47,987 bases of DNA. It comes from a virus. The DNA lies in the IMG/VR virus record IMGVR_UViG_3300038808_000009, positions 1 to 47,987 of that record. The stretch is one strand, 5' to 3'. The notes below the pieces were generated by a model. It ran no database searches. It was not told the DNA's origin and saw nothing but the letters and a program-made list of their open reading frames with translations. The position numbers and the translations under genes are program-made. The stretch's first letter is position 1; every line of letters starts with the position of its first letter. Positions 25,798-47,049 of this stretch are shown here, in pieces.

Positions 25798-26248
25798 CGG
25801 TGCCGGCCCTGTACTTGACGGTGTTTCGAGCGTTGAGCGCCTTGCTCGCCCAGCGAAGGTTGACACGGCGGTTGTCCAGCGTGTCGCCGTTTCGATGATC
25901 CCCGACCCAGGACGCGTCCGGCGGCTCGCCGCACATCCTGACGAGGATCGCCCGGTGAAGCCATAGGTTGCCGTAGGCTTGCCGGCCGCTCGGCGTCACC
26001 CGCCCGGGGATGGGCACGCTCCGACGGGCGTAGATCCCGTCCGGCCGGCTGATCGTCCAGGTCTCGGGGTCGAAGCTCCCGGATCCGTAGCTGTGGCACC
26101 AGAGCCAGCGCCGGGCCCAGAGGTAGTCCTGCCGATCGAGCAGGCAGTAGCAGTCGATCCGGTCCGAGAGCTGGAGGCAGACCGTCTCGTCGGGCGACGG
26201 ATCAGACGGCCAGAAGCGCGGATCGAAGTCGAGGCCCGGCGAGAGCAT
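25775..26248 (-). CDS. HNH endonuclease (free-standing, homing-type)
   Basis: WLHRAILVRMCG...VGDHRNGDTLDNRRVNLRWASKALN. Overlaps the polymerase start by about 23 nt and shares TGATG with the ASCH gene stop. Confidence 0.8.
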   Translation of the reverse strand: MLSPGLDFDPRFWPSDPSPDETVCLQLSDRIDCYCLLDRQDYLWARRWLWCHSYGSGSFDPETWTISRPDGIYARRSVPIPGRVTPSGRQAYGNLWLHRAILVRMCGEPPDASWVGDHRNGDTLDNRRVNLRWASKALNARNTVKYRAGTDDALYSA

Positions 26249-26541
26249 CAGTCGAACAGGCCTTCGTCAGAGGCCCGAACGTCAATGGCGAACACCTCGA
26301 CCGGGTTGGGGCCGAAGTGCGGGTGTATAATCGTGGCCCTCCGAAAGCCACGCCAGGGTCTTTCCAAGCGACGATGAACGTCGTCGGCACTTGGGTAGCC
26401 AAGGGTCAAGATTATCCCGTCGTAGGTTCGACCTTCAAGACGCTTGCACCAGTACGGCGTAACCAGCCGAAACTCCTCCAGCTTCTCCCCGCTGCGGATA
26501 GCGACGAAGTATTCGGTCTTGAGCGGTAAAATTAGCTTCAC
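26248..26541 (-). CDS. ASCH-domain protein (putative RNA-binding) ending in GLFD
   Basis: VKLILPLKTEYFVAIRSGEKLEEFRL is ASCH-like. GTG 26541 has AGGGGA upstream. Lower GC than its neighbours. Confidence 0.6.
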   Translation of the reverse strand: MKLILPLKTEYFVAIRSGEKLEEFRLVTPYWCKRLEGRTYDGIILTLGYPSADDVHRRLERPWRGFRRATIIHPHFGPNPVEVFAIDVRASDEGLFD

Positions 26542-26551
26542 GGCGGTCCCC

Positions 26552-26851
26552 TTAGTCGAACAGCCCGGTGGCGTCGGCCGGCGCTTCGCCCAGCTCGTCA
26601 TCGTCGAACAGGCCGCCCTTCATGCTGGCCGGCGCCTGGGCGGGCGGCGTGAGCGCGTCCATCATTGCCTCGATCAGGTCCGGCTTGATCGAGATGTGGT
26701 AGTCGCCGCTGTCGCGGAACCGGGTCGATACCTGCCATTGCGGCTCGCTCTCGCCGATCTGGACGCAGAGCATCTTGCGGAGACCCTTCGCCTTGGCGGA
26801 CCGCAGCGCGTCCATCAGGTAGCCCGGGATATCGTCTTCGTGGAGGTCCAT
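26552..26851 (-). CDS. small acidic protein with two GLFD motifs (one internal, one C-terminal)
   Basis: ...SMKGGLFDDDELGEAPADATGLFD-stop. Confidence 0.6.
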   Translation of the reverse strand: MDLHEDDIPGYLMDALRSAKAKGLRKMLCVQIGESEPQWQVSTRFRDSGDYHISIKPDLIEAMMDALTPPAQAPASMKGGLFDDDELGEAPADATGLFD

Positions 26852-26912
26852 GGCGGCGTTCTCTCATTGCGTCAGATGTGGTTGTAGCGGCACCGTAGCG
26901 CCGCCACAAGTC

Positions 26913-27101
26913 TTATCCTTTCGGATGGTCGACCATCATGCTCCGCTGGTGCGGCCGGACCGGATACTCGGGCGGCGCGCCCACGGTGAACAGCCACCAG
27001 AAGAACAGGCCGTAGAGGGCGATCATGCCGAAGATCGCCCAGAGTATCCCGGAGGCGGGCTTAAGCTTCTCGCCGGCCTCCGGGTCGATATCGGTGTTCA
27101 T
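26913..27101 (-). CDS. small membrane protein (62 aa)
   Basis: ILWAIFGMIALYGLFFWWLF TM helix. ATGA overlap with the upstream gene. Confidence 0.5.
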   Translation of the reverse strand: MNTDIDPEAGEKLKPASGILWAIFGMIALYGLFFWWLFTVGAPPEYPVRPHQRSMMVDHPKG

Positions 27102-27382
27102 GCGAACAGGTTATCCATTCCGAGCGCCTGGCAGTACAGTTCCACGATCGCGTGGAACTCCTGCTGTTCGCTGTGGTCTTGCTTCCGCATCTTGAGGATC
27201 GCCCGCAGAGCTTTGGCGTCGAACCCGCGGCCTTTCAGTTCCGCGAATACCTCTTTGATATCCGACGCGATGCCGGCCTTCTCCTCCTCCAGGCGCTCGA
27301 TCCGCTCCAGGAACGAGCGAAGCTCGTCCGCGGCGATCGAGTTGTCCCCGGGCGTGGCGCCCCCGTCAGCCTTGCGTGCCAT
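27098..27382 (-). CDS. gapR: GapR-family (DUF2312) DNA-binding protein
   Basis: LRSFLERIERLEEEKAGIASDIKEVFAELKGRGFDAKALRAILKMRKQD closely follows the GapR/UPF0335 signature. Confidence 0.85.
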   Translation of the reverse strand: MARKADGGATPGDNSIAADELRSFLERIERLEEEKAGIASDIKEVFAELKGRGFDAKALRAILKMRKQDHSEQQEFHAIVELYCQALGMDNLFA

Positions 27383-27809
27383 TCGCCTTCTCCCTGTTCG
27401 CGGCCCGGGTGCGAGCCGCCTTCTGCGCCGCCTCGCGCCGCTTCGCCCGGCGCTCGGCCTCCAGGCCGTTCTCGATCAGCGCGGCCGACGAGATCGCCTC
27501 GCCGACGCCGGCCTGCGGGATGGGCTCGCTCCGGGGCGCCTCCGGCGTCCAGCAGCGGAGTTGGCCGTTGAGCATCTGGCGGATGCGCCGGGTCTGCTCG
27601 CGCTCGCCCTGGTGGGGCATGTAGCGGCTGCGACCGTAGCCGCGGTAGCGCATGGTCCGGCGGAACGCGGCCGGTGTCCAAACGCGCCCATTCCTGTCGG
27701 TCGGGGCGTCCGGGCCGCCAGCGATGATCTTGCCGAGCGTGGCGACCGCGCCGGCCGCCAGGGTGCCGGCGGCGACGATGCGGGTCATGATGTTCTTCAT
27801 GCGGGACAT
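27366..27809 (-). CDS. hypothetical protein with N-terminal signal/TM segment and basic C-terminus
   Basis: ORF; N-terminal IVAAGTLAAGAVATLG; no family recognised. Confidence 0.5.
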   Translation of the reverse strand: MSRMKNIMTRIVAAGTLAAGAVATLGKIIAGGPDAPTDRNGRVWTPAAFRRTMRYRGYGRSRYMPHQGEREQTRRIRQMLNGQLRCWTPEAPRSEPIPQAGVGEAISSAALIENGLEAERRAKRREAAQKAARTRAANREKANGTQG

Positions 27810-27849
27810 GCTAACCTCTTGTGGCGGATGCTGAAAAACGATTCGCTAT

Positions 27850-27877
27850 GGGGCGCCGCAGACGGCCGCGACGCCCC
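27850..27877 (-). terminator. possible hairpin downstream of the SSB gene
   Basis: Minus strand: GGGGCGTCG...CGGCGCCCC, with a TTTTT run 11-15 nt further on. Atypical spacing. Confidence 0.3.
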
Positions 27878-27884
27878 GGCTTGG

Positions 27885-28493
27885 TCAGTCGAACAGCGCG
27901 GAGGCGCCGTCGCCGCCCTGGGTCTCCTCCGGGGCGTCGCCGGCCTCGTTCTTGAAGAACTGGTCCGGATCGGCCTCGCGCCCGCCCAGCTTCTCGCCGT
28001 CCTTCACCATCTGGCACATGGACAGGCCGATGGAGACGCCCTTGCCGTTCTCGGCGTTATCCCAAGTGTAGGCGTGGATGACGGCGTAGCCGTAGCAGCC
28101 GGAGTAGAGGTCGGTGCCCTCGATAGCGGGCTTGACCTTCTTATTGTAGAGCTTCGGCTGGAGGTTCGAGGCGGTCCGGATGAACCACATCCCCTCCAGT
28201 TCGGGGTACTGTTCCTCGGTCGTCTTGTTCATCCCCTGCGGGCCGTCGCCGTCGAGGATCGGGTTCTTGATCGTGCCCTTTTTCAGGCTCTCCCGGGCCT
28301 TCTCGCCCCACTCGGCGACGGCCGCCTCGATGATCGCCGCCTTGATCTCGGACAGATCGCCGTCCTTCGGGATGATAAGGTTCGCCTCGAACTTGAGCTT
28401 GGTCGGATCCTTTTTATTGGCCCGGGGCTTGAAGACGTTCATCCGCGAGAAACGGACGAGCGGCGAGCGGAAGTCTGCGGTACGCGAGGTCAT
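27885..28493 (-). CDS. ssDNA-binding protein, T7 gp2.5 / Enc34 DUF2815 type, acidic tail ending ALFD
   Basis: SPLVRFSRMNVFKPRANKK...KFEANLIIPKD is DUF2815-like. Sits in the canonical DUF2800-DUF2815-PolA neighbourhood. Confidence 0.8.
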   Translation of the reverse strand: MTSRTADFRSPLVRFSRMNVFKPRANKKDPTKLKFEANLIIPKDGDLSEIKAAIIEAAVAEWGEKARESLKKGTIKNPILDGDGPQGMNKTTEEQYPELEGMWFIRTASNLQPKLYNKKVKPAIEGTDLYSGCYGYAVIHAYTWDNAENGKGVSIGLSMCQMVKDGEKLGGREADPDQFFKNEAGDAPEETQGGDGASALFD

Positions 28494-28504
28494 CTGGTGT
28501 CCTT

Positions 28505-29842
28505 TCAGTCGTCTACGGCGTCAAAGAACGCGTTAGCGGCAGGTTCGTCTTCAACAGGCGTGAAGAACTTGTTCACGGGCGGCTCGATTGCCGGCCGTGT
28601 CGTCTTTTCGACCGAGACTAGACTTGTCCCGGTACGGGGCACCGTCGACAATCCGTCGATCAGCGACCCATGCTTCCCGAGCGCCTTCCGCACCTGTTTG
28701 GGCGTCCGGAGCTTGGGAGCAATCTGGTAGGCGTCCTCTGCGACGCCGAAAAGCTCGCACGTCGCCCTGGCCTGGGCGGCGGCGTCATCGTCGGTCCACT
28801 TCTCCCGGCCGTGGCGCTCGACAAGCTGGTAGCCCGGGATCTCGACGCCGCTCTCGGCCTCCCGCTGTGCCCAGGCGCGGCAGGCGTTGAGCCAGTTCTG
28901 GACCATGTCGGCGTTGTCCAGGACCCGGGCCAACTGTGCGGGGGACAGTTTGTCCGGGCGCAGTTCCGTCTTGAGCACGGCGACGCCGGTCTCCTCGTCC
29001 CGGAAGAACGCCTGCGCCTCCCGCTCGGACTTCTCGGCGAGCGCCGGGCAGAAGCCGGCGGCCGGGCAGAACTGGCAGTGATCGCCGGCCGACAGATAGG
29101 CGGCAACCCAATCCTGGAGGTCCCCGGGATCGCCGGCCGTGGCGCCGCCCTTGTAGTCGATCTCGGCATGGTGGGCACGCTTCCACGCTTCCTTGAGGTC
29201 GGCAGTCCAATCCAGGAGGTCCAGGTAGGAGATCGTCTCGGACCGGATCCGGCCGTCCGGGTGCTCCATCCGCGGCTGGACAATCGTGACCTTGACGTTC
29301 GTGATCGCCTTGCCGGCGAGCGTCAGGACCGAGCCCACTCCGTAGGTCCGTGCTTGCTTGTTCGCCTTCGCCTCGACCCGCACGCCCCGGCCGCCCTTAA
29401 GGTCGACGACCTCGACAAGCTCGTCCACCGGGAAGTACAGAACGGCGTCGGACGTGCCGCCGGCCTCGAACGGCGGCGACAGGCTGGCGAGCGAGAAGTT
29501 CTGTTCCAGCAGACACCCGCCGCCCTGCTCGCAGGCGATAGCAGTCCGCTCGTTCACGTAGTCGATATAGACCTGGGCGGTCTCGGCCAGTTCCTCGTCG
29601 ACCTCGATCTGGTGGGCCTTCGTCTTGACGATACGGCCGATGTACTCGACCGCATCCTGATTGCCCCGGAGACACATCTCCGAGACCTCGTGACAGGCGG
29701 TGCCCCAGGCCGCCGCCTCGCTCTCAACGTCGGCCGCGCCGTGGCGGCCGACGAGCGTCATGGAACCCGGGCACCCCCAGAGGCGTGCCGACGCGCTGGC
29801 GGACCATTTCGCGTGCCCGCGTGAGGAGTGCCCGGCGCCCAT
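28505..29842 (-). CDS. PD-(D/E)XK-type nuclease, DUF2800 family
   Basis: N-terminus GHAKWSASASARLWGCPGS is the DUF2800 hallmark. C-terminus ...NAFFDAVDD. Confidence 0.8.
   Translation of the reverse strand: MGAGHSSRGHAKWSASASARLWGCPGSMTLVGRHGAADVESEAAAWGTACHEVSEMCLRGNQDAVEYIGRIVKTKAHQIEVDEELAETAQVYIDYVNERTAIACEQGGGCLLEQNFSLASLSPPFEAGGTSDAVLYFPVDELVEVVDLKGGRGVRVEAKANKQARTYGVGSVLTLAGKAITNVKVTIVQPRMEHPDGRIRSETISYLDLLDWTADLKEAWKRAHHAEIDYKGGATAGDPGDLQDWVAAYLSAGDHCQFCPAAGFCPALAEKSEREAQAFFRDEETGVAVLKTELRPDKLSPAQLARVLDNADMVQNWLNACRAWAQREAESGVEIPGYQLVERHGREKWTDDDAAAQARATCELFGVAEDAYQIAPKLRTPKQVRKALGKHGSLIDGLSTVPRTGTSLVSVEKTTRPAIEPPVNKFFTPVEDEPAANAFFDAVDD
28943..28955. repeat. perfect GGACA-N3-TGTCC palindrome (GGACAGTTTGTCC)
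   Basis: Read directly; minus-strand codons P-D-K-L-S. Confidence 0.9.
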
Positions 29843-30324
29843 CAGACGGTCTCGCGCTCGAACGGGTTCTGCTCGATAGCCGCCTTCATGGCGTTGTAGG
29901 CGACCTCCAGCTTGTCGGCCGGGACGACCTTGAACGAGGCGAAGCCGATGATCTTCGGACCGTCCTCCAGGGCCGCCGGCATCCCGTAGAGCTTGGCGTA
30001 CTCGCCGCCGACCGCGCGCAGGGTGTCGACCGTGATGGCCGTGGTCTCGGCCGCCTTGCTTTCCTTGGCCTCGTCCGCCTTGTCGGCGGCCTTGGTCTCG
30101 GCGGTCTCGGGCTTGGCGGCCGTCGAGGCGTCCGCGGCCTTGGCGGCGGCCTTGGCCTTGGCGGTCGTCTTGGCGGGCTCGGCCTTCGGCGTCTCGGGCT
30201 CGGCCGGCGCGGCGGCCGGCAGGGTCACGACCCCGATCGTGCCGAGCAGGGCCGCGGACAGGGCCCGCAGATCGGCCAGGGTGGTGGCGGCGTCGTCGCC
30301 GAAGATCTCGATCTTGATGCTCAT
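29842..30324 (-). CDS. hypothetical protein with central Ala/Lys/Pro-rich low-complexity linker
   Basis: ORF with ATGA junctions on both sides. Contains AKTTAKAKAAAKAADAS..., a histone H1-like composition. Confidence 0.55.
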   Translation of the reverse strand: MSIKIEIFGDDAATTLADLRALSAALLGTIGVVTLPAAAPAEPETPKAEPAKTTAKAKAAAKAADASTAAKPETAETKAADKADEAKESKAAETTAITVDTLRAVGGEYAKLYGMPAALEDGPKIIGFASFKVVPADKLEVAYNAMKAAIEQNPFERETV

Positions 30325-31616
30325 TGTAAAACCTCAGCTATGGATGCGACTTTGCGCGTTAACACCGCAGTAACAGCCTCGTCTATCGAGCCCGCCAGAG
30401 CGGCTACTCTCACTAACACCCGGCCAGTCTGACCGAAGTTAGTGACCCGGAGCGCGGCCTGTTTCATATCCTTCGGAGTAAACGAACTCTCGACGAAGAT
30501 CAGGTCGCGGGAAAGGCTTAGGTCGATCGCCTCGCCGGCCGCGAGCATCTGCCCGAGGAAGACTTGGCTTCGATTAGTCTGGAAAGTCTCGACGGCTATA
30601 CCACGCTTTGCGGCGGGTGTGCGGCCGTCGAGGATGACCGGGTTGTACTTGTGCAGCAACTTCGCGAGCGTGTCTATCGCTTCGGTGTGCCAACACATCA
30701 GGACGACCCGGTCCATCTTGCCGTCTTCGATCTCCTCTTTCACGACGTCGGCGACGGCGTGGGCCTTGGCTACGGCGGTCACGCGGCGCAGCGTGCCCAG
30801 GTGGTGTTCGAGCGCGGCCGTGTCGCCGGTCTCGACGGCGTCCAGGATCTCGTCGGCCTCCGGGAGATGCGCGAGCGCGTCGCGGAGGGCCTTCGCCGCC
30901 ATGGCGCTCGGATCGAGGGCCAGGACGGAGTAGATGGGCTCGGTAATCCCGACGTCTTGCTGCGTCCTACGAAGCCACAAACCGTCGAGCCGCTGCTTTA
31001 GTTCCTGCTCGTTCTTACCGCGCAAGACGATTTTCTTCATCTCGCCCGCGACCCACTTACGCTTATAGACAGCGTACCGCTCGAAATACTGATCGTAGGT
31101 CATATCCGCGACGACGTGCGGCGCGAATGCTTTCAGCATGGCGTACAGATCTACCGGACTATTCGGCATAGGCGTGCCGGATAGAAGGAACTGCTGCTGC
31201 GCCGACATGCCGATCTGAATGGCCGCGACCGTCCTCTGCGCCGTGATCGACTTCCCGTAGTGGAACTCGTCGAGGATGCAGAGTTCGGCGCCCCAGGCGA
31301 TCAGGTGTTGCTTCTGGCACGGGTCGATAATCGTGCTCCAGGCGACGACCGCAACGTCCGTGTCCGGAGCGATACGGTCCTTCGACGAGAACAAGACCTG
31401 GACCTTCCGCGGGAACGCCTGCCACTCCCGGAAGTCTCGTCCGAAGTTGGCCCGGTTCGAGGCGGTCGTGACGACGAGGATCTTCCGGTAGAGGCAGAGG
31501 TCCGCCCCGATGATCGAGGCGCCTGTTTTTCCGACCCTTGGCTGATCTGCAAGTATAAGACCGCCCTTCGCAAGCCAAAGCCCGCCCTCTACTTGATGCG
31601 GCTTAGGTGTAATCAT
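30321..31616 (-). CDS. SNF2/DEAD-like helicase
   Basis: LADQPRVGKTG (Walker A), ILDEFHYGKS (DExH), C-terminal helicase lobe ...VFLGQMLAAGEAIDLS. Confidence 0.85.
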   Translation of the reverse strand: MITPKPHQVEGGLWLAKGGLILADQPRVGKTGASIIGADLCLYRKILVVTTASNRANFGRDFREWQAFPRKVQVLFSSKDRIAPDTDVAVVAWSTIIDPCQKQHLIAWGAELCILDEFHYGKSITAQRTVAAIQIGMSAQQQFLLSGTPMPNSPVDLYAMLKAFAPHVVADMTYDQYFERYAVYKRKWVAGEMKKIVLRGKNEQELKQRLDGLWLRRTQQDVGITEPIYSVLALDPSAMAAKALRDALAHLPEADEILDAVETGDTAALEHHLGTLRRVTAVAKAHAVADVVKEEIEDGKMDRVVLMCWHTEAIDTLAKLLHKYNPVILDGRTPAAKRGIAVETFQTNRSQVFLGQMLAAGEAIDLSLSRDLIFVESSFTPKDMKQAALRVTNFGQTGRVLVRVAALAGSIDEAVTAVLTRKVASIAEVLQ

Positions 31617-32119
31617 CGGCCGACCCCGCGAACTACTTCAAGTCCGCTCGGTTTGGTCCAGTTCCGTCCGTTCAATACATTCCAGATCGCGCGCTGCGAC
31701 ACGCCGTACAGGTCGGCGATATCGCGTTGCTTGGTGACGCCCGGCACGTAGCCGGCTCGGATCGCAACAGCCGCCTCGTCCGAGAGCTTGGCTTGGGTCT
31801 GAGCGGTGCCGCGGCGACGTTGAACGGTCGCCCGCGAGCGCGCCCACATGTCGTCCACGTTCTCCTGCGTCGACCCCGCCGCGAGATGCGAGGGCTCGAC
31901 GCAGGCCGGGGTGTCGCAGCGGTGCCGCACGTCCTGATCGTCGGCGACCGACACGCCGGAGGCGCGCAGCGCGAACCTATGCGCTTTCTCCAGGCGCTCG
32001 CCGTTCCAGAACACGCCATAGCCGTGCTCGTTGCAGCCGCCGAACCAGAGCTTGCACCCCGAGTTGGGCTCGGGAATGCACTTCGCCTCGAAACGGGCAA
32101 TGCGGTCCGCGGAGATCAT
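31613..32119 (-). CDS. HNH endonuclease with C-terminal HTH (free-standing, homing-type)
   Basis: GYGVFWNGERLEKAHRFA...HRCDTPACVEPSHLAAGSTQENVDDM, then QRDIADLYGVSQRAIWNVL. Confidence 0.8.
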   Translation of the reverse strand: MISADRIARFEAKCIPEPNSGCKLWFGGCNEHGYGVFWNGERLEKAHRFALRASGVSVADDQDVRHRCDTPACVEPSHLAAGSTQENVDDMWARSRATVQRRRGTAQTQAKLSDEAAVAIRAGYVPGVTKQRDIADLYGVSQRAIWNVLNGRNWTKPSGLEVVRGVGR

Positions 32120-33033
32120 CAGCGGCGCGTGAGGACGAGCGAGCCGACGACGAGGCCCAGGCCGGCGAGCAGCGAACCGAGCAGGGCCGGCGCGAGGCGG
32201 GCCTTGAGCGACTTACCCCCTGCGGGCACGAGTAGGACTGTCGGCATACCGTCCTCGACGAACACTGAGACCAGATCGACCTTTATGACCTGTTCCGAAT
32301 ACGGCCCATCCGGGAGGGCGTCAAGACGTTTTGTCCGCTCCTCCAGATCGAGCCGCCGCGCCTCGTCCGTCCGGCGGGCGATCCCCGCCAGGGCGTCGAT
32401 ATCCTCCGGGGAGAACAGCGGCTCCGGTCCGGGGGACTTATCCTTGTCCCGGGCGACCCGATCCTCCGCGACGGCCCGCCGGCAAGCCGCCTCGATCAGC
32501 CGGAGGACGGGCCCGCGCTGCGCCTCCGTCAGGCCGCAAAGCGCCGGGCTGTTCGGATCGACCCGGCGAGCGCCGGACTGGAGCTTCACGTCCGAGCAGC
32601 CCTGCATCTCCCAGGGCAGAGCGCGGCTGTCGACGCCGTAGCCGGCCGCCAGGATCGCTGCGCCTTCCTCCGCGAGTTCCGACCGCTCGGCGCGCGAGAG
32701 CGTCCTGCGGGCCCATTCTCCGGCAGGCTCGCGCATCATGTCGGCCACGGCCGTGTAGATATCGCCGGTCTGGTGCTCGGCCTCGATCCGCGTCGCGTCG
32801 ATCTCGTCGTGGGCGGCGCGAACGCCCGCCAGCATCGCCTTCCTGCCGGCCTCCGTTCCTTCCCGAAGCTCCCGCATGACCCGGAAGCCTTCGGCCTGTA
32901 TCTCGTCGATAGCGGCAGGGACGGACAAAGTGTCCGGCGGGCAGTGGCACGTCTCGCCGGTCTGCATCCCGCAGTCGCAGGGGCGCGGGGCCTCAGTCGA
33001 AAAGGCCGGGTCGGTCTCGTTCTTCGTCGTCAT
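32119..33033 (-). CDS. hypothetical protein with C-terminal membrane anchor
   Basis: ORF trimmed to ATG 33033, which has GAGGAG 10 nt upstream. C-terminus APALLGSLLAGLGLVVGSLVL. Overlaps the RuvC tail-coding region by 41 nt. Confidence 0.55.
   Translation of the reverse strand: MTTKNETDPAFSTEAPRPCDCGMQTGETCHCPPDTLSVPAAIDEIQAEGFRVMRELREGTEAGRKAMLAGVRAAHDEIDATRIEAEHQTGDIYTAVADMMREPAGEWARRTLSRAERSELAEEGAAILAAGYGVDSRALPWEMQGCSDVKLQSGARRVDPNSPALCGLTEAQRGPVLRLIEAACRRAVAEDRVARDKDKSPGPEPLFSPEDIDALAGIARRTDEARRLDLEERTKRLDALPDGPYSEQVIKVDLVSVFVEDGMPTVLLVPAGGKSLKARLAPALLGSLLAGLGLVVGSLVLTRR
32923..32935. repeat. perfect GGACA-N3-TGTCC palindrome (GGACAAAGTGTCC)
   Basis: Read directly; minus-strand codons P-D-T-L-S. 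Confidence 0.9.
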
Positions 33034-33502
33034 GGCGGTCTCGCTCCTCAAGTCTGCCGTATTCGGCGATCAGCGCGGCTTCCGAGAAGTCGGGGCGGCG
33101 CTTCCTGAACTCTGCGGCCAGGGCGGGGAACCGCCGCATAGCCTCGATCCTGGCGTCATCCTTGCCGCCCTTGATCCGCAGAGCTTTCTTCCACCTAGTC
33201 GGCGGCACCCGCAGGAGCCGCACGCCCAGGCCCATCAGCAGGTATTCCGGCGCGCCGGCCGCCCTGCCGAAGTTGAAGGCGGACGAGGCCGATTGGCCCT
33301 CGATCCCGCCGACCTGTTCGAGGTAGGCCACGTCCGGCCGTAGCTCCCGCAGGAGCGCCAACAGGGCCCACCCGTCGATCTCGTCCTTATCGGACCGCCC
33401 GCGGCGGACGGACAGGCTCGGCATGTCGTGGATCGAGCAGGCGTGCCCCTCCACGAGCGCGAGCGCGCCGGCCGCCCCCGGGTCGATCCCGAGCACCCTC
33501 AC
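32993..33502 (-). CDS. ruvC: RuvC-like Holliday junction resolvase ending in GLFD
   Basis: VRVLGIDPG (first catalytic Asp), AYLEQVGG, DFSEAALIAEYG. The GTG 33502 overlaps the upstream TGA (GTGA). Confidence 0.78.
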   Translation of the reverse strand: MRVLGIDPGAAGALALVEGHACSIHDMPSLSVRRGRSDKDEIDGWALLALLRELRPDVAYLEQVGGIEGQSASSAFNFGRAAGAPEYLLMGLGVRLLRVPPTRWKKALRIKGGKDDARIEAMRRFPALAAEFRKRRPDFSEAALIAEYGRLEERDRHDDEERDRPGLFD

Positions 33503-33847: not shown

Positions 33848-34093
33848 ATGACCCAGATCGACACCGAAGCCTTCACCGAAGATGCGCAGTTCGCGCTCTC
33901 CCGGTTCCGCCAGACGCTCACGCACCTGGAGAACGTCCTGGAGGCGGTCAGCCACGTCCTGCCGACCAACCGGAAGGCCGGGCTCAACATGCTCGACGAC
34001 ACGATCAACTACGCCCGGCAGATCCACGCCCAGATGGCGGCGATCCGCTCGGCCGAGACCCTTGTCCAGCAGCGGAAGGACGCCGGCCTGTGA
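33848..34093 (+). CDS. small helical hypothetical protein upstream of the integrase
   Basis: ATG 33848 preceded by GAGGAAAA; overlaps the int start (GTGA). Confidence 0.5.
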   Translation: MTQIDTEAFTEDAQFALSRFRQTLTHLENVLEAVSHVLPTNRKAGLNMLDDTINYARQIHAQMAAIRSAETLVQQRKDAGL

Positions 34094-35121
34094 GCACCCC
34101 CTTCATCAAGCGCGACGCCGGCTCCGGCCGCTGGCACATCTTCTGGCAGGAGGGCGGCAAGACCCGCAAGCGGTCGACCGGCACCGTCGACCGGCGCGAG
34201 GCCGAGAAGGCGCTCGGGCGCTTCCTGCTCGACGACCGGCCGGCGGCCGAGAAGGGCGAGGCGAGCAAGCCGGCCGCCACGGTCGCCCAGATCTGGCCCG
34301 CCTACGCCCTGTCGCTCCGCGGGACGCCGACCCACGTCCGGCTGCAATCGGTATGGGCCCGCCTGGAGCCCGCGTTCGGCGAGACGCCTGTCGTTAGTCT
34401 CGCGCAGGACGATCTCGACGGCTACGTGGCCGCCCGGACCCGGCACGGCGCCGGCCTGGGGACCGCGCGCCTCGAACTGGTGAAGCTCCAGGCGGCGATC
34501 AATCGCGCCGTCCTCGACCGGGTGCTCGACAAGGCCGACCGGCCGCGCCTCGTCATCCCGAGCGCCCCGGAGCCGCACGACCGTTGGCTGTCCCGGGAGG
34601 AAGCCGGCCGGCTCCTGGCGGCCTGCGCGCAGCAGCGGGAGGCGGACGGCCGCATGTCGAGGTCCGAGCGGTTCGTCTGGATCGCGCTCGGGACCGGCGC
34701 CCGGCGGCGCGCTATCGAGACCTTGACCTGGGATCAGGTCGATTTCGAGACAGGCGTGATCCACTTCAAGCCGGACGGGATCGCCCAAACCACGAAGCGC
34801 CGGCCGAGCGTGCCCATTTCCAAGGCCCTGCGCGAGACCCTGGAGGTCGCCTACGCGCAGCGGGGCGCCGGCAACGCCTACGTCCTCGACGGCACCCGGG
34901 AGGTCTACAGCAAGGTCGTCCGGGCCGCCTCCCTGGCCGGCGTGCGGGACGTGACGCCCCACGTCCTGCGCCACACCGCGGCGACCTGGATGGCGCGCAA
35001 GGGCGTGCCGATCTGGAGGATCGCCGGGATCCTGGGCAACACGGTCGCCGTGACCGAGGCCGTCTACGCGAAACACTGCCCGGACGATCAGCGGGCGGCC
35101 GTCGAAACCCTGTTCTCGTGA
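34090..35121 (+). CDS. int: tyrosine integrase
   Basis: C-terminal catalytic box HVLRHTAATWMARKGVPIWRIAGILGNTVAVTEAVYAKH, upstream ...ALGTGARRRAIETLTW (Arg I). Confidence 0.9.
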   Translation: MSTPFIKRDAGSGRWHIFWQEGGKTRKRSTGTVDRREAEKALGRFLLDDRPAAEKGEASKPAATVAQIWPAYALSLRGTPTHVRLQSVWARLEPAFGETPVVSLAQDDLDGYVAARTRHGAGLGTARLELVKLQAAINRAVLDRVLDKADRPRLVIPSAPEPHDRWLSREEAGRLLAACAQQREADGRMSRSERFVWIALGTGARRRAIETLTWDQVDFETGVIHFKPDGIAQTTKRRPSVPISKALRETLEVAYAQRGAGNAYVLDGTREVYSKVVRAASLAGVRDVTPHVLRHTAATWMARKGVPIWRIAGILGNTVAVTEAVYAKHCPDDQRAAVETLFS

Positions 35122-35129
35122 GGTCCGCC

Positions 35130-35399
35130 ATGCAAGTCGATTGGATACCGCGCTCGCGACACTACAGTCAGCGGGTCCACGCTTATATCGACCATCCGCC
35201 TTACGCCACGTTCAAGTCCAGTATAGGGCGGCTGCGCGTGACCTGGATGTATGAGCGATGGTTCAAGGTCCAGGTTAACTGGCGAGACGAATACTGGCCG
35301 CGTGGCTTCCTCGTCGACGCCTACGAACTCTCCCAGATCCTCCACTACTGCGGCGCGGTGCAGAACCCGCGCCGCAGGAAGCCCGAGACTACGCCATAG
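35130..35399 (+). CDS. hypothetical protein (89 aa), lower GC
   Basis: ATG 35130 within ORF 34584..35399. Trp/Tyr-rich; no family recognised. Confidence 0.45.
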   Translation: MQVDWIPRSRHYSQRVHAYIDHPPYATFKSSIGRLRVTWMYERWFKVQVNWRDEYWPRGFLVDAYELSQILHYCGAVQNPRRRKPETTP

Positions 35400-39257: not shown

Positions 39258-39448
39258 CCGGCGCGTTCGAACACTTCGTCGGCGCCGTCCTGATGGCCGC
39301 GCTCGCTATCGCCGCTTGCCGTGAAGGCGAGGCCAACCTAAAGCATTACGTCGACCACGCAGGTATTCGCTACCTGTTCAGCGGTTGGGGGTATTGGCTT
39401 CTCGGTATCCTGATCGGTTATCTCGCACTCAAGATCCTGGTGACATGA
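39254..39448 (+). CDS. small membrane protein (64 aa, two TM segments)
   Basis: FVGAVLMAALAIAA and YWLLGILIGYLALKILV. GTGA and ATGA junctions with its neighbours. Confidence 0.5.
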   Translation: MTGAFEHFVGAVLMAALAIAACREGEANLKHYVDHAGIRYLFSGWGYWLLGILIGYLALKILVT

Positions 39449-39807
39449 TGGCACTACAGCCCCGATCCCTCGACGAGGCGCGGATCATGTATCCGGCGCT
39501 CCAGTTCTACATCACTGCCCAGGACGCGGGCGGCGAAGTCACGCTCGAACTGATCGAGCCCAACACCGACGACGACCCGGAGACGGCCGGGCAGTCCTAC
39601 TCGTGCTCGGCGCCGACCGAGCGCGAGTGCTGGGAGAAGGCGTTCCCGCCCGTCGACCTGGAGAGCGTTCCGGAGGCCGAGCGGTTCGCCAGCGCCGAAG
39701 GCACGCGAGCCCATGCCGAGGCCGCGGTCTCGTTCCCCGAGCCTGACGAAGTGCCGGCCGACGAGCCGCCACTGGAGGACCCGGCCGTGCCGGGCCTGTT
39801 CGACTGA
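39445..39807 (+). CDS. acidic hypothetical protein ending in GLFD
   Basis: ATG 39445 overlaps the upstream stop. C-terminus ...EPPLEDPAVPGLFD. Confidence 0.6.
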   Translation: MMALQPRSLDEARIMYPALQFYITAQDAGGEVTLELIEPNTDDDPETAGQSYSCSAPTERECWEKAFPPVDLESVPEAERFASAEGTRAHAEAAVSFPEPDEVPADEPPLEDPAVPGLFD

Positions 39808-40346
39808 TGGAGACCTTCGACACGCACGAACTGGCATGGTGCGCCGGGTTCTTCGACGGCGAGGGCTCGACGTGCCTACAGCGCAAGGGCGGCTGGCGCG
39901 AGCTATGGGTCCAAGTGCCTCAGTCCGAGCTATCGACGCTCGAACGCTTCCAGCGCGCAGTCGGCGGTCGTGGCAAGATCGGCGGCCCCTGGCAACCGAA
40001 GTACGCCGGCAGTAAGCCGACGTATAGACTAGACTTCCGAGGCTACCGCGAGGCGCAGTTCGTCCTCGCTCTGCTGTGGCGGTTCCTGTCCGAGCCGAAG
40101 CGCCAGCAAGCCACGGTGTGCCTCGTCGAGGCCGCCGCCTACTTCAAAGAACGAGCCGCCTACGCGCGCAAGGGCCCTTCCAAGCTCACGCTCGCGCAGG
40201 CCGCAGAGATCCGCGCGGCGCGAGATCAGGCCAGGATCGGCCGACAGCGCGTTCCGCGGAATTGGGTCGTTCAGGTTGCCGACCTGTACGGCGTTTCCAC
40301 TCACTGCATCGCCACGGTGCTATCAGGTAGAGGCCACATCCAATGA
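39807..40346 (+). CDS. LAGLIDADG-type homing endonuclease with C-terminal HTH
   Basis: ELAWCAGFFDGEGST motif. C-terminus VQVADLYGVSTHCIATVLSG. TGATG junction with the upstream gene. Confidence 0.72.
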   Translation: METFDTHELAWCAGFFDGEGSTCLQRKGGWRELWVQVPQSELSTLERFQRAVGGRGKIGGPWQPKYAGSKPTYRLDFRGYREAQFVLALLWRFLSEPKRQQATVCLVEAAAYFKERAAYARKGPSKLTLAQAAEIRAARDQARIGRQRVPRNWVVQVADLYGVSTHCIATVLSGRGHIQ

Positions 40347-41239: not shown

Positions 41240-41476
41240 GTGTTGCATCGTAAGCTCACGCCCGCAGAAGTTGCGGAAGCTCGTGCTCTGCTGATCGCAG
41301 ACATTATCATCACCACTAAGATGCCGGGAACTTCGTCTCTCGCAACAATTCTGCGGACGCGATACCACTTTCTCGCACAGAAGATCTGGCCGGACGCTAA
41401 AGCGCGAGACTACGACACGCAGACGAAGCGGGCTATACTCGATCTAGCCCGTAAAATTGTCGCCGCGGGTCTGTGA
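41240..41476 (+). CDS. hypothetical protein (78 aa), low-GC islet
   Basis: GTG start with GGAGA RBS. GTGA overlap with the primase gene. Confidence 0.5.
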   Translation: MLHRKLTPAEVAEARALLIADIIITTKMPGTSSLATILRTRYHFLAQKIWPDAKARDYDTQTKRAILDLARKIVAAGL

Positions 41477-43821
41477 TCGTGAATGCTCACCCGAACCTCC
41501 CGAACGTCGCCAAGGCAATAGAACTGCTCAAGGCGCTCGACGAGCACGGACGGCACAACGTAGTCGCGCTCGATCCGAACGAACAACAGGGCCCCATAGG
41601 TCGGACATTTGAGCCCGGCCAGTGGGACGCTATCGCTGATTGGCTACGTGCCCATCTCGACTACAACCTGTACTTCTCGCGCAACGAACCGCGGGAAGGC
41701 GCCCCGCACGGCAAGCTGTCCGAGGCCGATATCGTCGCGGTCCGCGCGCTCGGGATCGACCTGGACATAGCCGGCGGCACGCCCGAGGAGATCGAGGCGC
41801 AGCGCGTCGAGCTTCACGATACCGTTGAGCGGATCGTCAACGGCCGCGCGCCGCCCACGGTCATGATCGAGACCGGCAACGGCGCGCAGGGCTTGTGGCT
41901 GCTGCCCGAGAAGGTCGCGGTGGACAAAGTGTCCGGGCCGAACGCCAAGGCGCTCGGGCTCGGAATGCGCAAGGCGATGGGCGGCGACAGCATCGCCAAC
42001 CTCGACCGCATCATGCGCCTGCCCGGCCTGATGAACCATTCGAGCGTGAAGAAACGCGCGCTCGGCAAGACGGGCGGGATGACCAAAGTCATCTACGCTG
42101 ATCGCCGGCAGGCGAACAAGGCGGTGCGGCTCGATATCGACGCGCTCGGGGCGGTCTACGGCTTCATCTCGTCGGCCGAGATCACGGATAGCGCCGTCGC
42201 GGCCGTGGCGGACCAGATCGACCTCGCCCAGGCCCGGGAAGGCGTGAGCGCGGAGCTACAGGCCCGGCTCGACGCGGCGCCCATCGTCAAGGGCGTGCTC
42301 TCGGGCGAGACGCCGCCCCGGGACACGTCGGGCTCGGGCTGGCGGGCGGCGCTCGCCGGGAACATGGCGCGGGCGGGCTTCACGCTCCAGGACTACGCGG
42401 CGACGGTGCTCGGTTGGGAGCCCGGCCAGCCGAAGCAAGGCGACCTCGACCTCCGCACCCTGGCGCGGGATTGGGCTCGCGTCGGCGAGACGGCCGCCAC
42501 GGCGGCTGCGGCCGAGACGCACCTGTCCGAGGTTTCGGAAGCGGATATCGACGTTTCGGCCTGGAACGAACAGCGCGTGAAGCAACGCGAGGACGAGATC
42601 GAGGCGAAGCTGGAGGCCAAGACAGATATCGTCTGGGAAGACCCGGCCGACTGGAAAGACGTGGAGATCCCCGAGCGGGTGTTCTACGTCGACAGCCTCG
42701 TCCCGCAGGGCGGCTCTACTCTCGTCACCGGCATCGGCGGCGTCGGCAAGTCGAACCTCGTGCTCCAGATGCTCGTCTGCATCGCGCTCGGGCGCCCGTT
42801 CCTGGGTCTCGCGACGCGGCAGGCCAAGGTCTGCGCGTTCTTCTGCGAGGACGACCGGAACGAGATCGGCCGGCGCCTCCAGCGGGTGTGCGCGGATCTC
42901 GATATCGACCTGGAAGATCTGCGCGGCCGGATGATCTGGACGAGCCGCATCGGCGAACTCAACACCCTGGCCGAGTTCGAGGCGAAGAACGGCGGCGCCA
43001 TGCGGCTGTCGAAGCTCCACGGCAAGCTGCTCAAGGCGGCCGTGGACTTCGGCGCCGAGGTCGTGGCGCTCGACACTATCGCCGACGTGTTCAGCGGGAA
43101 CGAGATCGACCGGCAACAGGTCTCGGCGTTCGTGAAGCGGTGCGCCGGCTCGTTCGTGGATCGCTGCGGCGCGTGCATCCTGCTCGGCCACCCGTCCAAG
43201 TCGGGCTCGGCCGAAGGCGGCGACATGACCTCCGGCTCGACGGCCTGGAAGGGCTCGGTCCGGTCGCATCTGGCGCTCGGCTACGATGGTGACGACGAGG
43301 ACGCCCAGAAGTCCCCGTTCCGCAAGCTCTCGAACCTCAAGGCCAACTATGCCGGCACGCTCGGCGCCATGAAGCTCCTGTTCTCGGGCCGGGCCTTCTC
43401 GGTGTTCTCGGTCGCCAAGGCCCCGAACAGTGACGCGCCGACCCTCGCGACCCCGCGCGTGCCCATTACCTCGACGGTGCTGGAGGGCGCTATCGCAGAG
43501 GCCGTGGCGCGGGCCGATATCGACGGCGTGATCCTGGCCGCAGCGGCGCAGAGCCCGCACTACATCGTGTCGGCGCTCAAGGCTCGCGAGAAGGATGCGC
43601 TGCGCCCGTTCAAGGCCGCAGAGGTCGCCGCGGCTGTCAAGGCCATGGTACTCGCCGGGACGCTGATCGAGGTCTCGGCCAAGTCGGCGAGGCGGCATCC
43701 GATCAAGGCGTATGCGCTGCGGCCGGTGTCGGACGAGGCGGCTGCTCGGTTCTTTACGGCAGAGGAGGACCACTCGGACAGTTTGTCCGACGGGGAGAAT
43801 GAGCCGGGCCTGTTCGACTGA
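41473..43821 (+). CDS. bifunctional primase-polymerase (AEP) and RecA-fold (AAA_25/RepA-like) helicase, ending in GLFD
   Basis: AEP motifs LGIDLDI and IETGNGAQGLWLL. Walker A GIGGVGKSNL and Walker B VVALDTIADV. C-terminus DGENEPGLFD. Confidence 0.87.
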   Translation: MIVNAHPNLPNVAKAIELLKALDEHGRHNVVALDPNEQQGPIGRTFEPGQWDAIADWLRAHLDYNLYFSRNEPREGAPHGKLSEADIVAVRALGIDLDIAGGTPEEIEAQRVELHDTVERIVNGRAPPTVMIETGNGAQGLWLLPEKVAVDKVSGPNAKALGLGMRKAMGGDSIANLDRIMRLPGLMNHSSVKKRALGKTGGMTKVIYADRRQANKAVRLDIDALGAVYGFISSAEITDSAVAAVADQIDLAQAREGVSAELQARLDAAPIVKGVLSGETPPRDTSGSGWRAALAGNMARAGFTLQDYAATVLGWEPGQPKQGDLDLRTLARDWARVGETAATAAAAETHLSEVSEADIDVSAWNEQRVKQREDEIEAKLEAKTDIVWEDPADWKDVEIPERVFYVDSLVPQGGSTLVTGIGGVGKSNLVLQMLVCIALGRPFLGLATRQAKVCAFFCEDDRNEIGRRLQRVCADLDIDLEDLRGRMIWTSRIGELNTLAEFEAKNGGAMRLSKLHGKLLKAAVDFGAEVVALDTIADVFSGNEIDRQQVSAFVKRCAGSFVDRCGACILLGHPSKSGSAEGGDMTSGSTAWKGSVRSHLALGYDGDDEDAQKSPFRKLSNLKANYAGTLGAMKLLFSGRAFSVFSVAKAPNSDAPTLATPRVPITSTVLEGAIAEAVARADIDGVILAAAAQSPHYIVSALKAREKDALRPFKAAEVAAAVKAMVLAGTLIEVSAKSARRHPIKAYALRPVSDEAAARFFTAEEDHSDSLSDGENEPGLFD
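41922..41934. repeat. perfect GGACA-N3-TGTCC palindrome (GGACAAAGTGTCC)
   Basis: Read directly; codons V-D-K-V-S. Confidence 0.9.
43776..43788. repeat. perfect GGACA-N3-TGTCC palindrome (GGACAGTTTGTCC)
   Basis: Read directly; codons S-D-S-L-S, 31 nt before the primase stop. Confidence 0.9.
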
Positions 43822-44486: not shown

Positions 44487-44681
44487 CAGGTCGTCGAGGT
44501 CGGTGCGGGGCGCTACTCCCGGAACACCCATCGCAACAGGCGCTCGACGCCTAGCAGCGGGGCGAACGCGGCGAGGAACACCGCGGCGAGGATGAGGAGC
44601 GCCAACATCAGGGCAGGAACCACACCGCGCACGCGGCGACCATGGGCGCAACGATCAGCGCGGCCGTGAGAAGGGCGCCGG

Positions 44682-45713: not shown

Positions 45714-45796
45714 GGGTCCGGTTCCTGTGATGCGAGGGCGTTGCGAAGTAACGACGCCATAGTGGCGTCGCTACGGTGTCGTGTCAAGCGTGATTT

Positions 45797-46027
45797 TCAG
45801 ACGAAGCGGCCATTCCCGCGGCGGAGCTTCACGGCCTTGATCCGGTCCGCGGGAAACAGCGCGGCGAACGCCTCGCGCGCCTCGCGCGGCGTCGAGGCCG
45901 CAACGTCGCCCTCAAAGGCGATCCGGCGACGCCCCGCAGGGGGCGCCTCGCGATGCGTCCAGAGGACGACGAAGGGGCGCAGAGACGCTTCGCGCGGCTT
46001 CGCCGCTCTCGCGCTAAGGGGCGCCAT
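45797..46027 (-). CDS. hypothetical protein (76 aa)
   Basis: ATG 46027 overlaps the stop of the upstream ORF (TGATG). Part of ORF 45797..46384. Confidence 0.4.
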   Translation of the reverse strand: MAPLSARAAKPREASLRPFVVLWTHREAPPAGRRRIAFEGDVAASTPREAREAFAALFPADRIKAVKLRRGNGRFV

Positions 46028-46323
46028 CAGCGCGCCACCTTCACGAAACGGCCGGTGACGGGGCAACGCGGCCGGGGCGCCCGTCCGGCCTTGATCGCGG
46101 CCGTGACGGGGCCGCCGCTCGCGATGATGGGCTCGACCTGTCCGCGATGGCGCGCGTCGAGGGGCGAGGCGAAGGCGACGCGGGCGCCCGACAGCGCCGT
46201 GAACACGACGAGCGCGGCGAAGGCGAGAAAGAACGCGGCTAGGCCCGCGTCGCCGTCGAGGGCGAAGCCCGCGAGATGGGCCGGAACGTGCGAGGGGAGC
46301 GGAGCGGTGTAAGCGAAGTGCAT
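46027..46323 (-). CDS. hypothetical membrane protein (98 aa)
   Basis: AGLAAFFLAFAALVVFTAL hydrophobic segment. First gene of the leftward operon. Confidence 0.45.
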   Translation of the reverse strand: MHFAYTAPLPSHVPAHLAGFALDGDAGLAAFFLAFAALVVFTALSGARVAFASPLDARHRGQVEPIIASGGPVTAAIKAGRAPRPRCPVTGRFVKVAR

Positions 46324-46443
46324 GGCGTGGCTTCCTGTGCCGTGGTGACGGTGCTGTTATGGCGCCACTACGGCGCCACGTCAAGCGCCATTTTCAGGCT
46401 TTTGTGCGGTAGCCTGTTACCGCGTTGTGGTAGCCCGATACCG

Positions 46444-46470
46444 CGAACGATAGGCCGCATCTATCGTTCG
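46444..46470. repeat. perfect 10-bp inverted repeat with 7-nt spacer
   Basis: cgaacgatag (46444..46453), gccgcat, ctatcgttcg (46461..46470), in the divergent region between the leftward operon and terS. Confidence 0.85.
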
Positions 46471-46506
46471 GGGCAGGATGTGATAGGTTGCGCCTATCCG
46501 GACAAC

Positions 46507-46535
46507 TTGTCTGGGACAGTCGCCCGGACATAAGT
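46507..46535 (+). promoter_or_regulatory. candidate terS promoter overlapped by two operator-like sites
   Basis: TTGTCT (46507..46512), 17 nt, ATAAGT (46530..46535). GGACAACTTGTCT at 46500..46512 and GGACATAAGTTCC at 46526..46538. Confidence 0.4.
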
Positions 46536-46560
46536 TCCGACAGCGAAAGGGAAAACTGTC

Positions 46561-47049
46561 ATGCCGGAAAAAGGTGGTCGACTAACCGAGCAGGAAACGG
46601 CATTCATCGCCGAGATGACGCGCGTCGGCGATCCGGTCAAAGCGGCCGAACTGGCGGGCTACGCTCACCCACGGCAGGCGGCTCACAAGCTCAACGCTCG
46701 TCCCGAGATCGTCCGGGCGGTGTGGGAAGCGACGGAGCTTGTGCTGCGCGGCGAGGGCGCGGCCGTTGGCGTCGGGACGCTGATCGAGATCGCCCGGGAC
46801 GAGAAGGCGCCGAAGAACGCTCGCGTTGCCGCGGCGGGTCATCTCGTCAAGCTCAACGGCTACGGGGAGGCGATAGGCGCGAGCGGGAGCGCCAAGCCGC
46901 TGTCAGAGATGACGCGAGCCGAGCTTGCGGAGGCGCGAGCGCGGGCTGTGCTCTACCTCGACGAGTTGCAGCGGGGCGGAACGACTATCGAGGGCGAGGC
47001 GGTCGCGCTCCCGGCTCCGGACGTTTCGTCCGGCGGGCTTTTCGACTGA
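46561..47049 (+). CDS. terS: terminase small subunit ending in GLFD
   Basis: LTEQETAFIAEMTRVGDPVKAAELAGYAHPRQAAHKLNARPEIVRAV is Terminase_2-like. C-terminus PDVSSGGLFD. Confidence 0.78.
   Translation: MPEKGGRLTEQETAFIAEMTRVGDPVKAAELAGYAHPRQAAHKLNARPEIVRAVWEATELVLRGEGAAVGVGTLIEIARDEKAPKNARVAAAGHLVKLNGYGEAIGASGSAKPLSEMTRAELAEARARAVLYLDELQRGGTTIEGEAVALPAPDVSSGGLFD

Follow-up and report, generated by a model that had tools for sequence, protein, structure and literature searches.

What leads many unrelated proteins encoded in one virus genome to end in the same few residues? This question is raised by a viral DNA of 47,987 nucleotides (IMG/VR record IMGVR_UViG_3300038808_000009), which was analyzed over its whole length and is referred to below as the window. 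The window is a complete circular contig of ~47.9 kb with a G+C content of 67%, in which bases 1-55 are repeated exactly at 47933-47987 (a 55-nt terminal direct repeat), and to judge from its gene content it is a temperate tailed phage. Its replication block encodes a family A DNA polymerase (PolA), a DUF2815-type single-stranded DNA-binding protein (SSB), a DUF2800 nuclease, an SNF2 helicase, a GapR homologue, a RuvC-like resolvase, and a prim-pol/AAA_25 helicase. A first-pass annotation of the window had listed replication, recombination, and packaging proteins with a common terminal peptide ending in Leu-Phe-Asp (LFD) and had proposed that they share one receptor. We find that ten unrelated proteins of the window share a Phe-containing C-terminal tail, far beyond chance, and we suggest that this tail may serve to dock its carriers on a receptor within the replisome that the element encodes.

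Ten unrelated proteins share a C-terminal tail

A C-terminal LFD was found in 7 of the 53 window proteins, compared with 0.008 expected from the amino acid composition of the window, and 10 of the 53 have Phe as the penultimate residue (position -2), compared with 1.66 expected. Phe at the very last position (1/53) and at positions -3 to -6 was at background level, as was LFD inside the window proteins (2 observed versus 2.3 expected). Together with 74 control loci described below, these statistics rule out chance or composition as the origin of the tails. All seven proteins listed in the first-pass annotation end in the residues given there, although its heading spoke of eight, and the variants that it named on the GapR homologue (MDNLFA) and the DUF2800 nuclease were also correct. 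Its statement that the structural block lacks the tail did not hold, since a 243-residue protein encoded within that block carries it (Table 1), and an orthologue of this protein in Rhizobium phage RHph_N65 (40% identity) ends DDNLFK.

The shared signal lies in the peptide and not in the DNA, because the DNA flanking the tails, both upstream and downstream, is unrelated among carriers, orthologues at 40% identity keep the tail, and the linkers differ in length and composition. The tail codons vary, with CTG and CTT in use for Leu and GGC and GGG for Gly. A motif acting at the DNA level, such as a terminator, a coupling signal, or a recombination site, was rejected on the basis of the unrelated flanks, this codon variation, and the switches of Leu to Val or Ile and of Asp to Ala, Gly, or Ser in relatives.

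Counted over 70 tails, in which the Phe is fixed by the selection of tails, the motif has the general form [G/S/D/N]-[L/V/I]-F-x-COOH and is preceded by a disordered linker. Two residues before the Phe are Gly (34 tails), Ser (12), Asp (10), Asn (8), or Ala (4); directly before it are Leu (29), Val (26), or Ile (13); and the last residue, directly after it, is Asp (28), Ala (17), Gly (11), Ser (6), or Glu (4). No enrichment was seen further upstream in these tails: aliphatic residues are not enriched three residues before the Phe (G13, E11, S6, D6, A6, N5, L5), nor is Gln enriched four residues before it (A18, E8, D7, G6, T6).

The tails lie outside the conserved domains, with PHROG and Pfam profiles stopping before them. 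For instance, the phrog_1770 profile stops at residue 155 of the 169-residue RuvC-like resolvase, and the tail of the 97-residue protein was placed outside its domain because the PHROG profile stops at residue 90. Orthologues share the folded parts and the last four residues, while the linkers in between differ greatly in length and composition, and the tail is retained despite this divergence at identities of 26-70%. Orthologues of the 99-residue acidic protein in contigs L087 and L089 have the first ~70 residues in common, linkers of very different lengths, and the ends ALFD and SLFD; those of the 120-residue acidic protein (L081, L082, L089, and L087) end GGLFD or SLFD after variable linkers. 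Judged by these comparisons, purifying selection acts on the tail alone and not on the linker. The first reading of the window, in which one C-terminal peptide is carried by unrelated folds on disordered linkers, is thus upheld by orthologues that keep the tail while their linkers vary. Its description of the linkers as disordered and acidic or Pro/Gly-rich stood as to disorder, the tails being unstructured in AlphaFold2 models, but not as a general rule of acidity: the window has moderately acidic linkers, whereas those of EBPR siphovirus 2 are basic or rich in Pro.

Structure predictions were obtained for two carriers. The AlphaFold2 model of the SSB shows an OB fold with a predicted local distance difference test (pLDDT) score above 88 to about residue 170 and of 53-66 in the tail. 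Its Foldseek matches (4KLK, 7e-12, DUF2815; 5ODJ, 9e-10, Enc34 ORF6; 1JE5, 1e-7, T7 gp2.5) place the modeled protein in the DUF2815/Enc34 ORF6/T7 gp2.5 SSB family, with a C terminus predicted to be disordered. Residues 754-782 of the prim-pol/helicase have a pLDDT below 50 and are undocked on their own protein in the monomer model; docking in cis was not seen in the monomer models of either the SSB or the helicase. Phe781 of the helicase is invariant in 12 homologues at 26-43% identity, of which those at 39-43% end GLFD and those at 26-33%, from Mesorhizobium elements, end [G/S]VF[A/E/S/G].

The tail is nearly universal in some families and missing from others. It was found in 60 of 62 phage GapR homologues and in 20 of 24 homologues of the RuvC-like resolvase. 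The window GapR homologue belongs to the GapR family by its matches to PDB entries 6CFY, 6OZZ, and 6CG8 (up to 2e-23); bacterial GapR chains in the PDB stop 1-2 residues past the conserved Gly, and the phage DNLFA extends beyond this point. About 60 of 67 DUF2815 SSB homologues end [G/A/S][L/F]F-x, and the tail is therefore a feature of the whole DUF2815 SSB branch; in the family count it was scored in 47 of 70 SSB homologues, some of the others extending by one or two residues. Orthologues of the 162-residue helix-turn-helix protein end GGLFD (L081 and L082), GGFFD (L001), and SDIFE (RHph_N65). Only 2 of 85 homologues of the DUF2800 nuclease have a terminal tail; its orthologues (including those in L086-L090) keep a sub-terminal x[F/L/H]F-x-x-[I/V]-[D/E] 5-8 residues before the end, which may be a second, related docking peptide. 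The integrase is a weak case, as its orthologues in L087 and L089 are without the tail; an unrelated island integrase (L006) ends SGVFA. None of 50 PolA homologues carries the tail, and a conserved basic C terminus (...KRYRK[D/E]) is present instead. The SNF2 helicase also lacks it in all 77 homologues.

The tails follow the replication module

More than 80 related genomes of phages and mobile elements contain the network. Around DUF2815-type SSB homologues in 80 viral contigs, the motif is present on 228 of 1628 open reading frames (ORFs) (14%), with up to eight per 20 kb, compared with 5 of 1413 ORFs (0.35%, chance level) in the 74 control loci, which are mostly alphaproteobacterial. Prophages of Methylobacterium and contigs from metagenomes are the closest relatives of the window. 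The end GGLFD is common to the small acidic protein, the helicase, and a 154-residue helix-turn-helix protein of two Methylobacterium-type relatives, and three further relatives have [L/V/F]F[D/S/A] on the resolvase, SSB, GapR, and small acidic proteins. RHph_N65, an isolated phage, has 13 carriers, including RusA, an HNH nuclease, an endonuclease, a PAPS-reductase-like protein, the SSB, and the helicase-primase. EBPR siphovirus 2, whose host was read as betaproteobacterial (Accumulibacter) because of the annotation "CAP CRISPR match", has 11, two large DNA methylases and an exonuclease among them. Overall, the carriers comprise SSBs, primase-helicases, RuvC and RusA resolvases, GapR, nucleases, DNA methylases, an integrase, and small acidic and helix-turn-helix proteins.

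The network is present with the PolA/DUF2815 module in phages of Alpha- and Betaproteobacteria. Bacteroides and Enterococcus phages with this module have a reduced network, in which the SSB and one or two further proteins have an aliphatic-Phe-x tail. No network was found in Rhodobacter phage RcKemmy, which has an alphaproteobacterial host, a lambda-like early region, and no such module, or in Agrobacterium phage 7-7-1, which has other PolA and SSB subtypes. Tails were also found on islands with a conserved core in Mesorhizobium and Devosia (L098 7687-13558, L099 2377-9092, L005, L006, and L002). The core order is an integrase, a small protein, the prim-pol/helicase, a ~190-residue protein (86 residues in L098), and a ~100-residue protein, of which the last three are all tailed; L098, L099, L005, and L006 have 3-4 tailed proteins each (prim-pol/helicase, two small proteins, and one integrase). 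Pfam gave no match to the island-core proteins except for the helicase and the integrase. Taken across these comparisons of gene content, the network follows the T7-like replication module and not the host.

Some elements carry other tails. Caulobacter phage Jess A (L184, MK942064) has a PolA of the same subfamily as the window and different shared tails: its SSB and a 123-residue protein end ...DDQV, and its small terminase and a 73-residue protein end ...FRDLV (Table 1). This suggests that tail codes may be particular to each lineage. In viral contig L175, the DUF2815 SSB (9971-10651) has a bacterial-type tip, ...GDDEIPF, and the Phe tail is present on none of 28 ORFs. The DUF2815 SSB of P0074 bears both tips (...ALFGGDDDHPPF). 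Among DUF2815 SSBs, the host-type tip is found only in these other lineages (L175, L174, and P0074).

Carriers within a genome change together

The first-pass annotation had proposed comparing the terminal motif among homologues. In this comparison, the terminal motif recurs on carriers in more than 80 genomes, and the residue before its Phe co-varies between the carriers of one genome. Among the non-SSB carriers, the residue before the Phe is concordant within a genome (0.67 versus 0.35 in shuffles), a value reached in none of 5000 shuffles. This residue is Leu in the window and its Methylobacterium relatives, Ile in RHph_N65, and Val in EBPR siphovirus 2. The last residue of the tail is not concordant within a genome, and the SSB tail almost always has Leu before the Phe.

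The L/V/I type largely tracks phylogeny. A covariation scan of this type against the columns of PolA, SNF2, DUF2800, SSB, and GapR revealed no discriminating column. Since the type follows phylogeny and no clean column exists in PolA or the control proteins, the covariation analysis does not name the receptor.

Separately, five PolA columns (R138, V336, R366, G715, and G741 in the numbering of the 777-residue ORF) were found to be conserved in 35 of 35 Phe-type polymerases and changed in Jess A and L175. The two arginines among them may offer a weak lead to a carboxylate-binding site, with these two contrast sequences only.

A possible docking site in the element's own replisome

What the analysis shows is a conserved motif on a disordered tail, tied to the replication module and changing in concert among its carriers. 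We propose, with a probability of roughly 0.45, that carriers use the tail to dock on a receptor that belongs to the replisome of the element itself, with PolA as the probable receptor; this would be the T7 arrangement on a larger scale. In this proposal, [G/S/D/N]-[L/V/I]-F-x-COOH would be a short linear motif at the tip of a flexible linker, through which many DNA-transaction proteins would be tethered to one common receptor. The receptor would most likely be part of the element's own T7-like replication machinery, with the family A polymerase as the first candidate and the prim-pol/helicase as the second. The logic would be that of T7, where the tails of gp2.5 and gp4 dock on the polymerase, widened from two carriers to 7-13. 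The presence of one peptide on unrelated folds after disordered linkers argues for a common receptor, and the association of the tag with the replication module, together with its capacity for re-coding, points to an element-encoded receptor. We infer three separate things: that there is a single receptor, that it is phage-encoded, and that it is PolA.

Several observations weigh against this proposal. The tailed islands L098, L099, L005, and L006 have no PolA or DUF2815 SSB within 10 kb, which excludes PolA as their receptor. In the PolA alignment, no column matches the L/V/I type more closely than columns of the control proteins do. The basic linkers of EBPR siphovirus 2 are unlike the acidic ones of T7, and the core residues of the tail resemble positions 3-5 of the beta-clamp motif. 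Finally, the lack of a tail on PolA itself may merely reflect a structural constraint on family A C termini (T7 gp5 His704).

The docking proposal can be widened into a clamp-less replisome "toolbelt", in which a C-terminal address of four residues would bring as many as 13 proteins, among them the SSB, primase-helicase, resolvases, nucleases, DNA methylases, a nucleoid protein, and an integrase, to a phage-encoded receptor in widespread temperate phages and related islands; we hold this tentatively, somewhat short of even odds. The tag would then be a private, evolvable interaction code, written as L/V/I-Phe-x in these elements, as ...QV/...LV in Jess A, and as ...IPF elsewhere.

The main rival is the host beta sliding clamp, with the tails acting as minimal clamp-binding motifs without Gln and the clamp serving as a toolbelt on the DNA of the element. 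The core [S/D/G/N]-[L/I/V]-F corresponds to positions 3-5 of QL[SD]LF (PMC11139829), but positions 1 and 2, which give most of the affinity, show neither Gln nor aliphatic enrichment in the 70 tails, and Val or Ile at position 4 falls outside the canonical motifs (PMC11139829). Escherichia coli Pol III alpha ends QVELEF-D-COOH, with the terminal Asp side chain and carboxylate touching Arg246, the same geometry of Phe followed by one residue, and T4 gp43 ends ...LDFLFG. However, in the Rhizobiales, the order of these hosts, DinB of Rhizobium, Mesorhizobium, and Methylocella ends in canonical QLxLxF/L-type motifs, and DnaE ends ...VEVN in Methylobacterium and ...VELV in Sinorhizobium, not in a phage-like peptide. 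The carriers (methylases, nucleases, resolvases, integrase, and primase-helicase) resemble known clamp clients, tails occur on islands without a polymerase or SSB of their own, and phage and transposon proteins such as Mu MuC are known to use the host clamp (PMC12867686). A clamp receptor nevertheless fits poorly with the absence of the network from other alphaproteobacterial phages (RcKemmy and 7-7-1) and the 74 control loci, and with Jess A, which shares the PolA subfamily and an alphaproteobacterial host and uses acidic ...QV/...LV tails unlike the clamp motif. The within-genome L/V/I concordance argues for a receptor that varies between lineages. On balance, we regard the host clamp as an unlikely receptor.

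A second rival places the hub on the prim-pol/helicase hexamer, on which the tails of other proteins and of neighboring subunits would dock. The helicase is the sole replication protein common to the phages and the PolA-less islands, its penultimate Phe is invariant, a hexamer provides many sites, and T7 gp2.5 also contacts gp4. Yet the helicase is itself a carrier, its own tail is undocked in the monomer model, and EBPR siphovirus 2, BT24, and phiFL4A keep SSB tails with other helicase types. This makes the helicase an improbable hub.

A degron or adaptor tag that shortens the lifetime of early proteins through a host protease is very improbable. Unstable regulators are common in temperate phages, many carriers are early or lysogeny-related proteins (the integrase included), and the tail is a short hydrophobic peptide that a flexible linker exposes at the C terminus, but it is unlike the ssrA-like ends ...LAA and ...VAA and is conserved from Bacteroidota to Proteobacteria although protease specificities differ. 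The SSB, which is required stoichiometrically throughout replication, also carries it, and the protease adaptor raised in the first-pass annotation fits poorly with a network that is tied to the replication module and not to the host. Least probable of all is autoinhibition in cis by DNA-mimicking tails that fold onto the DNA-binding surface of their own protein with no common receptor: nearly all carriers bind DNA, and the T7 gp2.5 and Enc34 ORF6 tails contact DNA-binding grooves (PMC5686142), but an identical motif on unrelated folds that changes in concert would not be predicted if each cis contact were independent, some linkers are basic, and AlphaFold2 shows no cis docking.

Other candidates were considered and rejected. 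A phage-encoded clamp was sought by tblastn, which found no DnaN-like sequence in 176 related loci (2.9 Mb), and by Pfam, which found none among the non-structural proteins of the window. The protein encoded at 29842-30324 is not clamp-like; a long low-complexity linker separates its two small domains. Mimicry of the host DnaE C terminus was dismissed on the Methylobacterium and Sinorhizobium ends given above, which differ from the ...LEFD of E. coli alpha. Mimicry of the host SSB tip was dismissed because the sequence differs and the genuine host-type tip occurs separately.

Gene content of the window

The features of the window that bear on the network are listed in Table 1. Structural and lysis genes include terL (5945-7567), the major head protein, tail fiber genes, and an endolysin. 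By megablast, no close relative of the window was found at the DNA level among isolated phages, and single-protein scans of genome and viral contigs found nothing.

Table 1. Positions of tailed and untailed genes discussed in the text (window positions, except for the last row)
Feature	Position	Strand	C-terminal end	Basis or remark
97-residue protein	26248..26541	-	DEGLFD	phrog_625 (function unknown) as sole match
99-residue acidic protein	26552..26851	-	ATGLFD, plus internal GGLFDDDE	Translated ends
Phage GapR homologue	27098..27382	-	5-residue extension DNLFA	Pfam GapR_DNA-bd PF10073, 8e-31
DUF2815/Enc34-type (T7 gp2.5-like) SSB	27885..28493	-	GDGASALFD	Pfam PF10991, 4e-35
DUF2800 PD-(D/E)XK nuclease	28505..29842	-	NAFFDAVDD (sub-terminal variant)	Pfam, 2e-60
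RuvC-like Holliday junction resolvase	32993..33502	-	RPGLFD	phrog_1770, 2e-24
Tyrosine integrase	34090..35121	+	VETLFS (weak possible carrier)	Pfam Phage_integrase, 6e-18
120-residue acidic protein	39445..39807	+	VPGLFD	Translated end
Prim-pol/RecA-type (AAA_25) helicase	41473..43821	+	EPGLFD	Pfam AAA_25, 1e-24; PHROG primase/helicase
162-residue protein, N-terminal helix-turn-helix	46561..47049	+	SGGLFD	No family match
243-residue protein	12319..13050	+	GANSLFA	Just 3' of the major head protein gene; missed by the first-pass annotation
Family A DNA polymerase	23533..25866	-	Untailed	Pfam DNA_pol_A; phrog_17, 1e-81
SNF2-family helicase, module-conserved	30321..31616	-	Untailed	Pfam SNF2-rel_dom and Helicase_C
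Jess A (L184) shared-tail genes	1662-2228, 7603-7824, 9808-10434, 18560-18931

Two names from the first-pass annotation were not borne out. Pfam, PHROGs, and the PDB lend no support to the label "ASCH" for the 97-residue protein. The label "terS" for the 162-residue protein finds no match in Pfam or PHROG, and terL is about 7 kb away; a homologue in L001 (44% identity) gives a sub-threshold Terminase_2 match, the sole small-terminase match. By position, the gene at 5454-5948 (+), which lies directly upstream of terL and overlaps its start, is a better-placed small-terminase candidate; neither gene has family support as a small terminase.

Further features were noted outside the network. A long stretch of 9-nt (Gly-X-Y) repeats at 35389-37200 (-) points to a collagen-like tail fiber protein, and homologues in relatives have a Pfam Collagen domain. 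Three HNH homing-endonuclease-like genes lie within the replication block (25775-26248, 31613-32119, and 39807-40346), none of them tailed; they look like mobile insertions, because two are without a counterpart in relatives. Between the SNF2 helicase and the DUF2800 nuclease, a conserved 160-residue protein (29842-30324, -) is encoded that is found in all close relatives. Its small N- and C-terminal domains, the latter ending ...EQNP[F/Y], are separated by a long low-complexity linker rich in Ala, Lys, Glu, and Pro.

Significance

If the docking proposal is correct, one portable peptide tag would physically organize the replication, recombination, modification, and perhaps packaging of a phage, where the precedents for such organization are small, with two carriers in T7 and three in T4. 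The tag could serve as a sequence-only flag for "hypothetical" early phage proteins that act at the replisome, and as a handle for engineered recruitment or for peptide block of replication. The network would also be a test case for the spread of short linear motifs across unrelated genes within a genome. The question is directly testable, because RHph_N65 is isolated and has a culturable host.

Comparison with known systems

Full-text literature searches found no description of this tail network, in agreement with the first-pass annotation, whose author knew of none. Parallels exist among known C-terminal recruitment peptides. The tip of bacterial SSBs resembles the tails in that a disordered linker and a conserved hydrophobic tip on an SSB recruit proteins; there, however, one tail serves many receptors, whereas here many tails would serve one presumed receptor. 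The bacterial tip, D-D-[D/E]-[I/L]-P-F-COOH (D-D-D-I-P-F), is also not that of the window SSB, which ends GDGASALFD.

The bacterial beta-clamp-binding motif (CBM) is likewise a short linear motif, often C-terminal and with negative flanks, in which the last three core residues are alike and, in E. coli alpha, a terminal Asp follows the Phe. It is defined by Gln at position 1, an aliphatic residue (preferably Leu) at position 2, and [L/M] then [F/L] at positions 4-5 (PMC11139829). Over the 70 tails, neither the Gln nor the aliphatic residue is found as a rule, and positions 4-5 are Leu (29), Val (26), or Ile (13) followed by the Phe on which the tails were selected, Val and Ile being non-canonical. 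Moreover, the Phe stands at -2 in every full-carrier tail, a few SSBs adding one or two residues, and the CBM has no such constraint.

In T4, the tails of gp43, gp55, and gp33 that bind the clamp (gp45) are interchangeable hydrophobic/acidic C-terminal peptides on divergent unstructured linkers (PMC2988020), and the end of gp43, ...LDFLFG, has the aliphatic-Phe-x-COOH form. T4, however, has genes for a clamp and loader of its own, whereas tblastn of the related loci gave no DnaN homologue; and in T4 the tail is borne chiefly by the polymerase, which never bears it here.

The analogy with T7 drawn in the first-pass annotation is apt, as the SSB has the gp2.5/Enc34 fold and T7 gp2.5 and gp4 share a ...DF end. 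Both replisomes have a family A polymerase, a gp2.5-fold SSB (Foldseek 1JE5), a primase-helicase, and an exonuclease; in both, unrelated proteins share an aromatic-containing C-terminal tail (gp2.5 ...DEDGDF and gp4 ...NDTDF in T7), and the polymerase itself is untailed. In the window, as in T7, the tail is found on the gp2.5-fold SSB and on the replicative primase-helicase of a family A polymerase replisome, the proteins being identified by Pfam and Foldseek. The T7 Phe, however, is the last residue after a strongly acidic run, whereas here it is second to last after small and aliphatic residues (-2 in 10/53 proteins, -1 in 1/53). T7 has two carriers compared with 7-13 here, and its endonuclease I and gp6 exonuclease are untailed, whereas resolvases, nucleases, methylases, and GapR are tailed here. 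The receptor in T7 is the polymerase, and suppressors of a gp2.5 without its terminal Phe mapped to gene 5; here the polymerase would be the leading candidate. The nearest known systems are thus the SSB and helicase tails of T7 and the clamp-binding tails of T4, and the network described here differs from both in sequence and in breadth.

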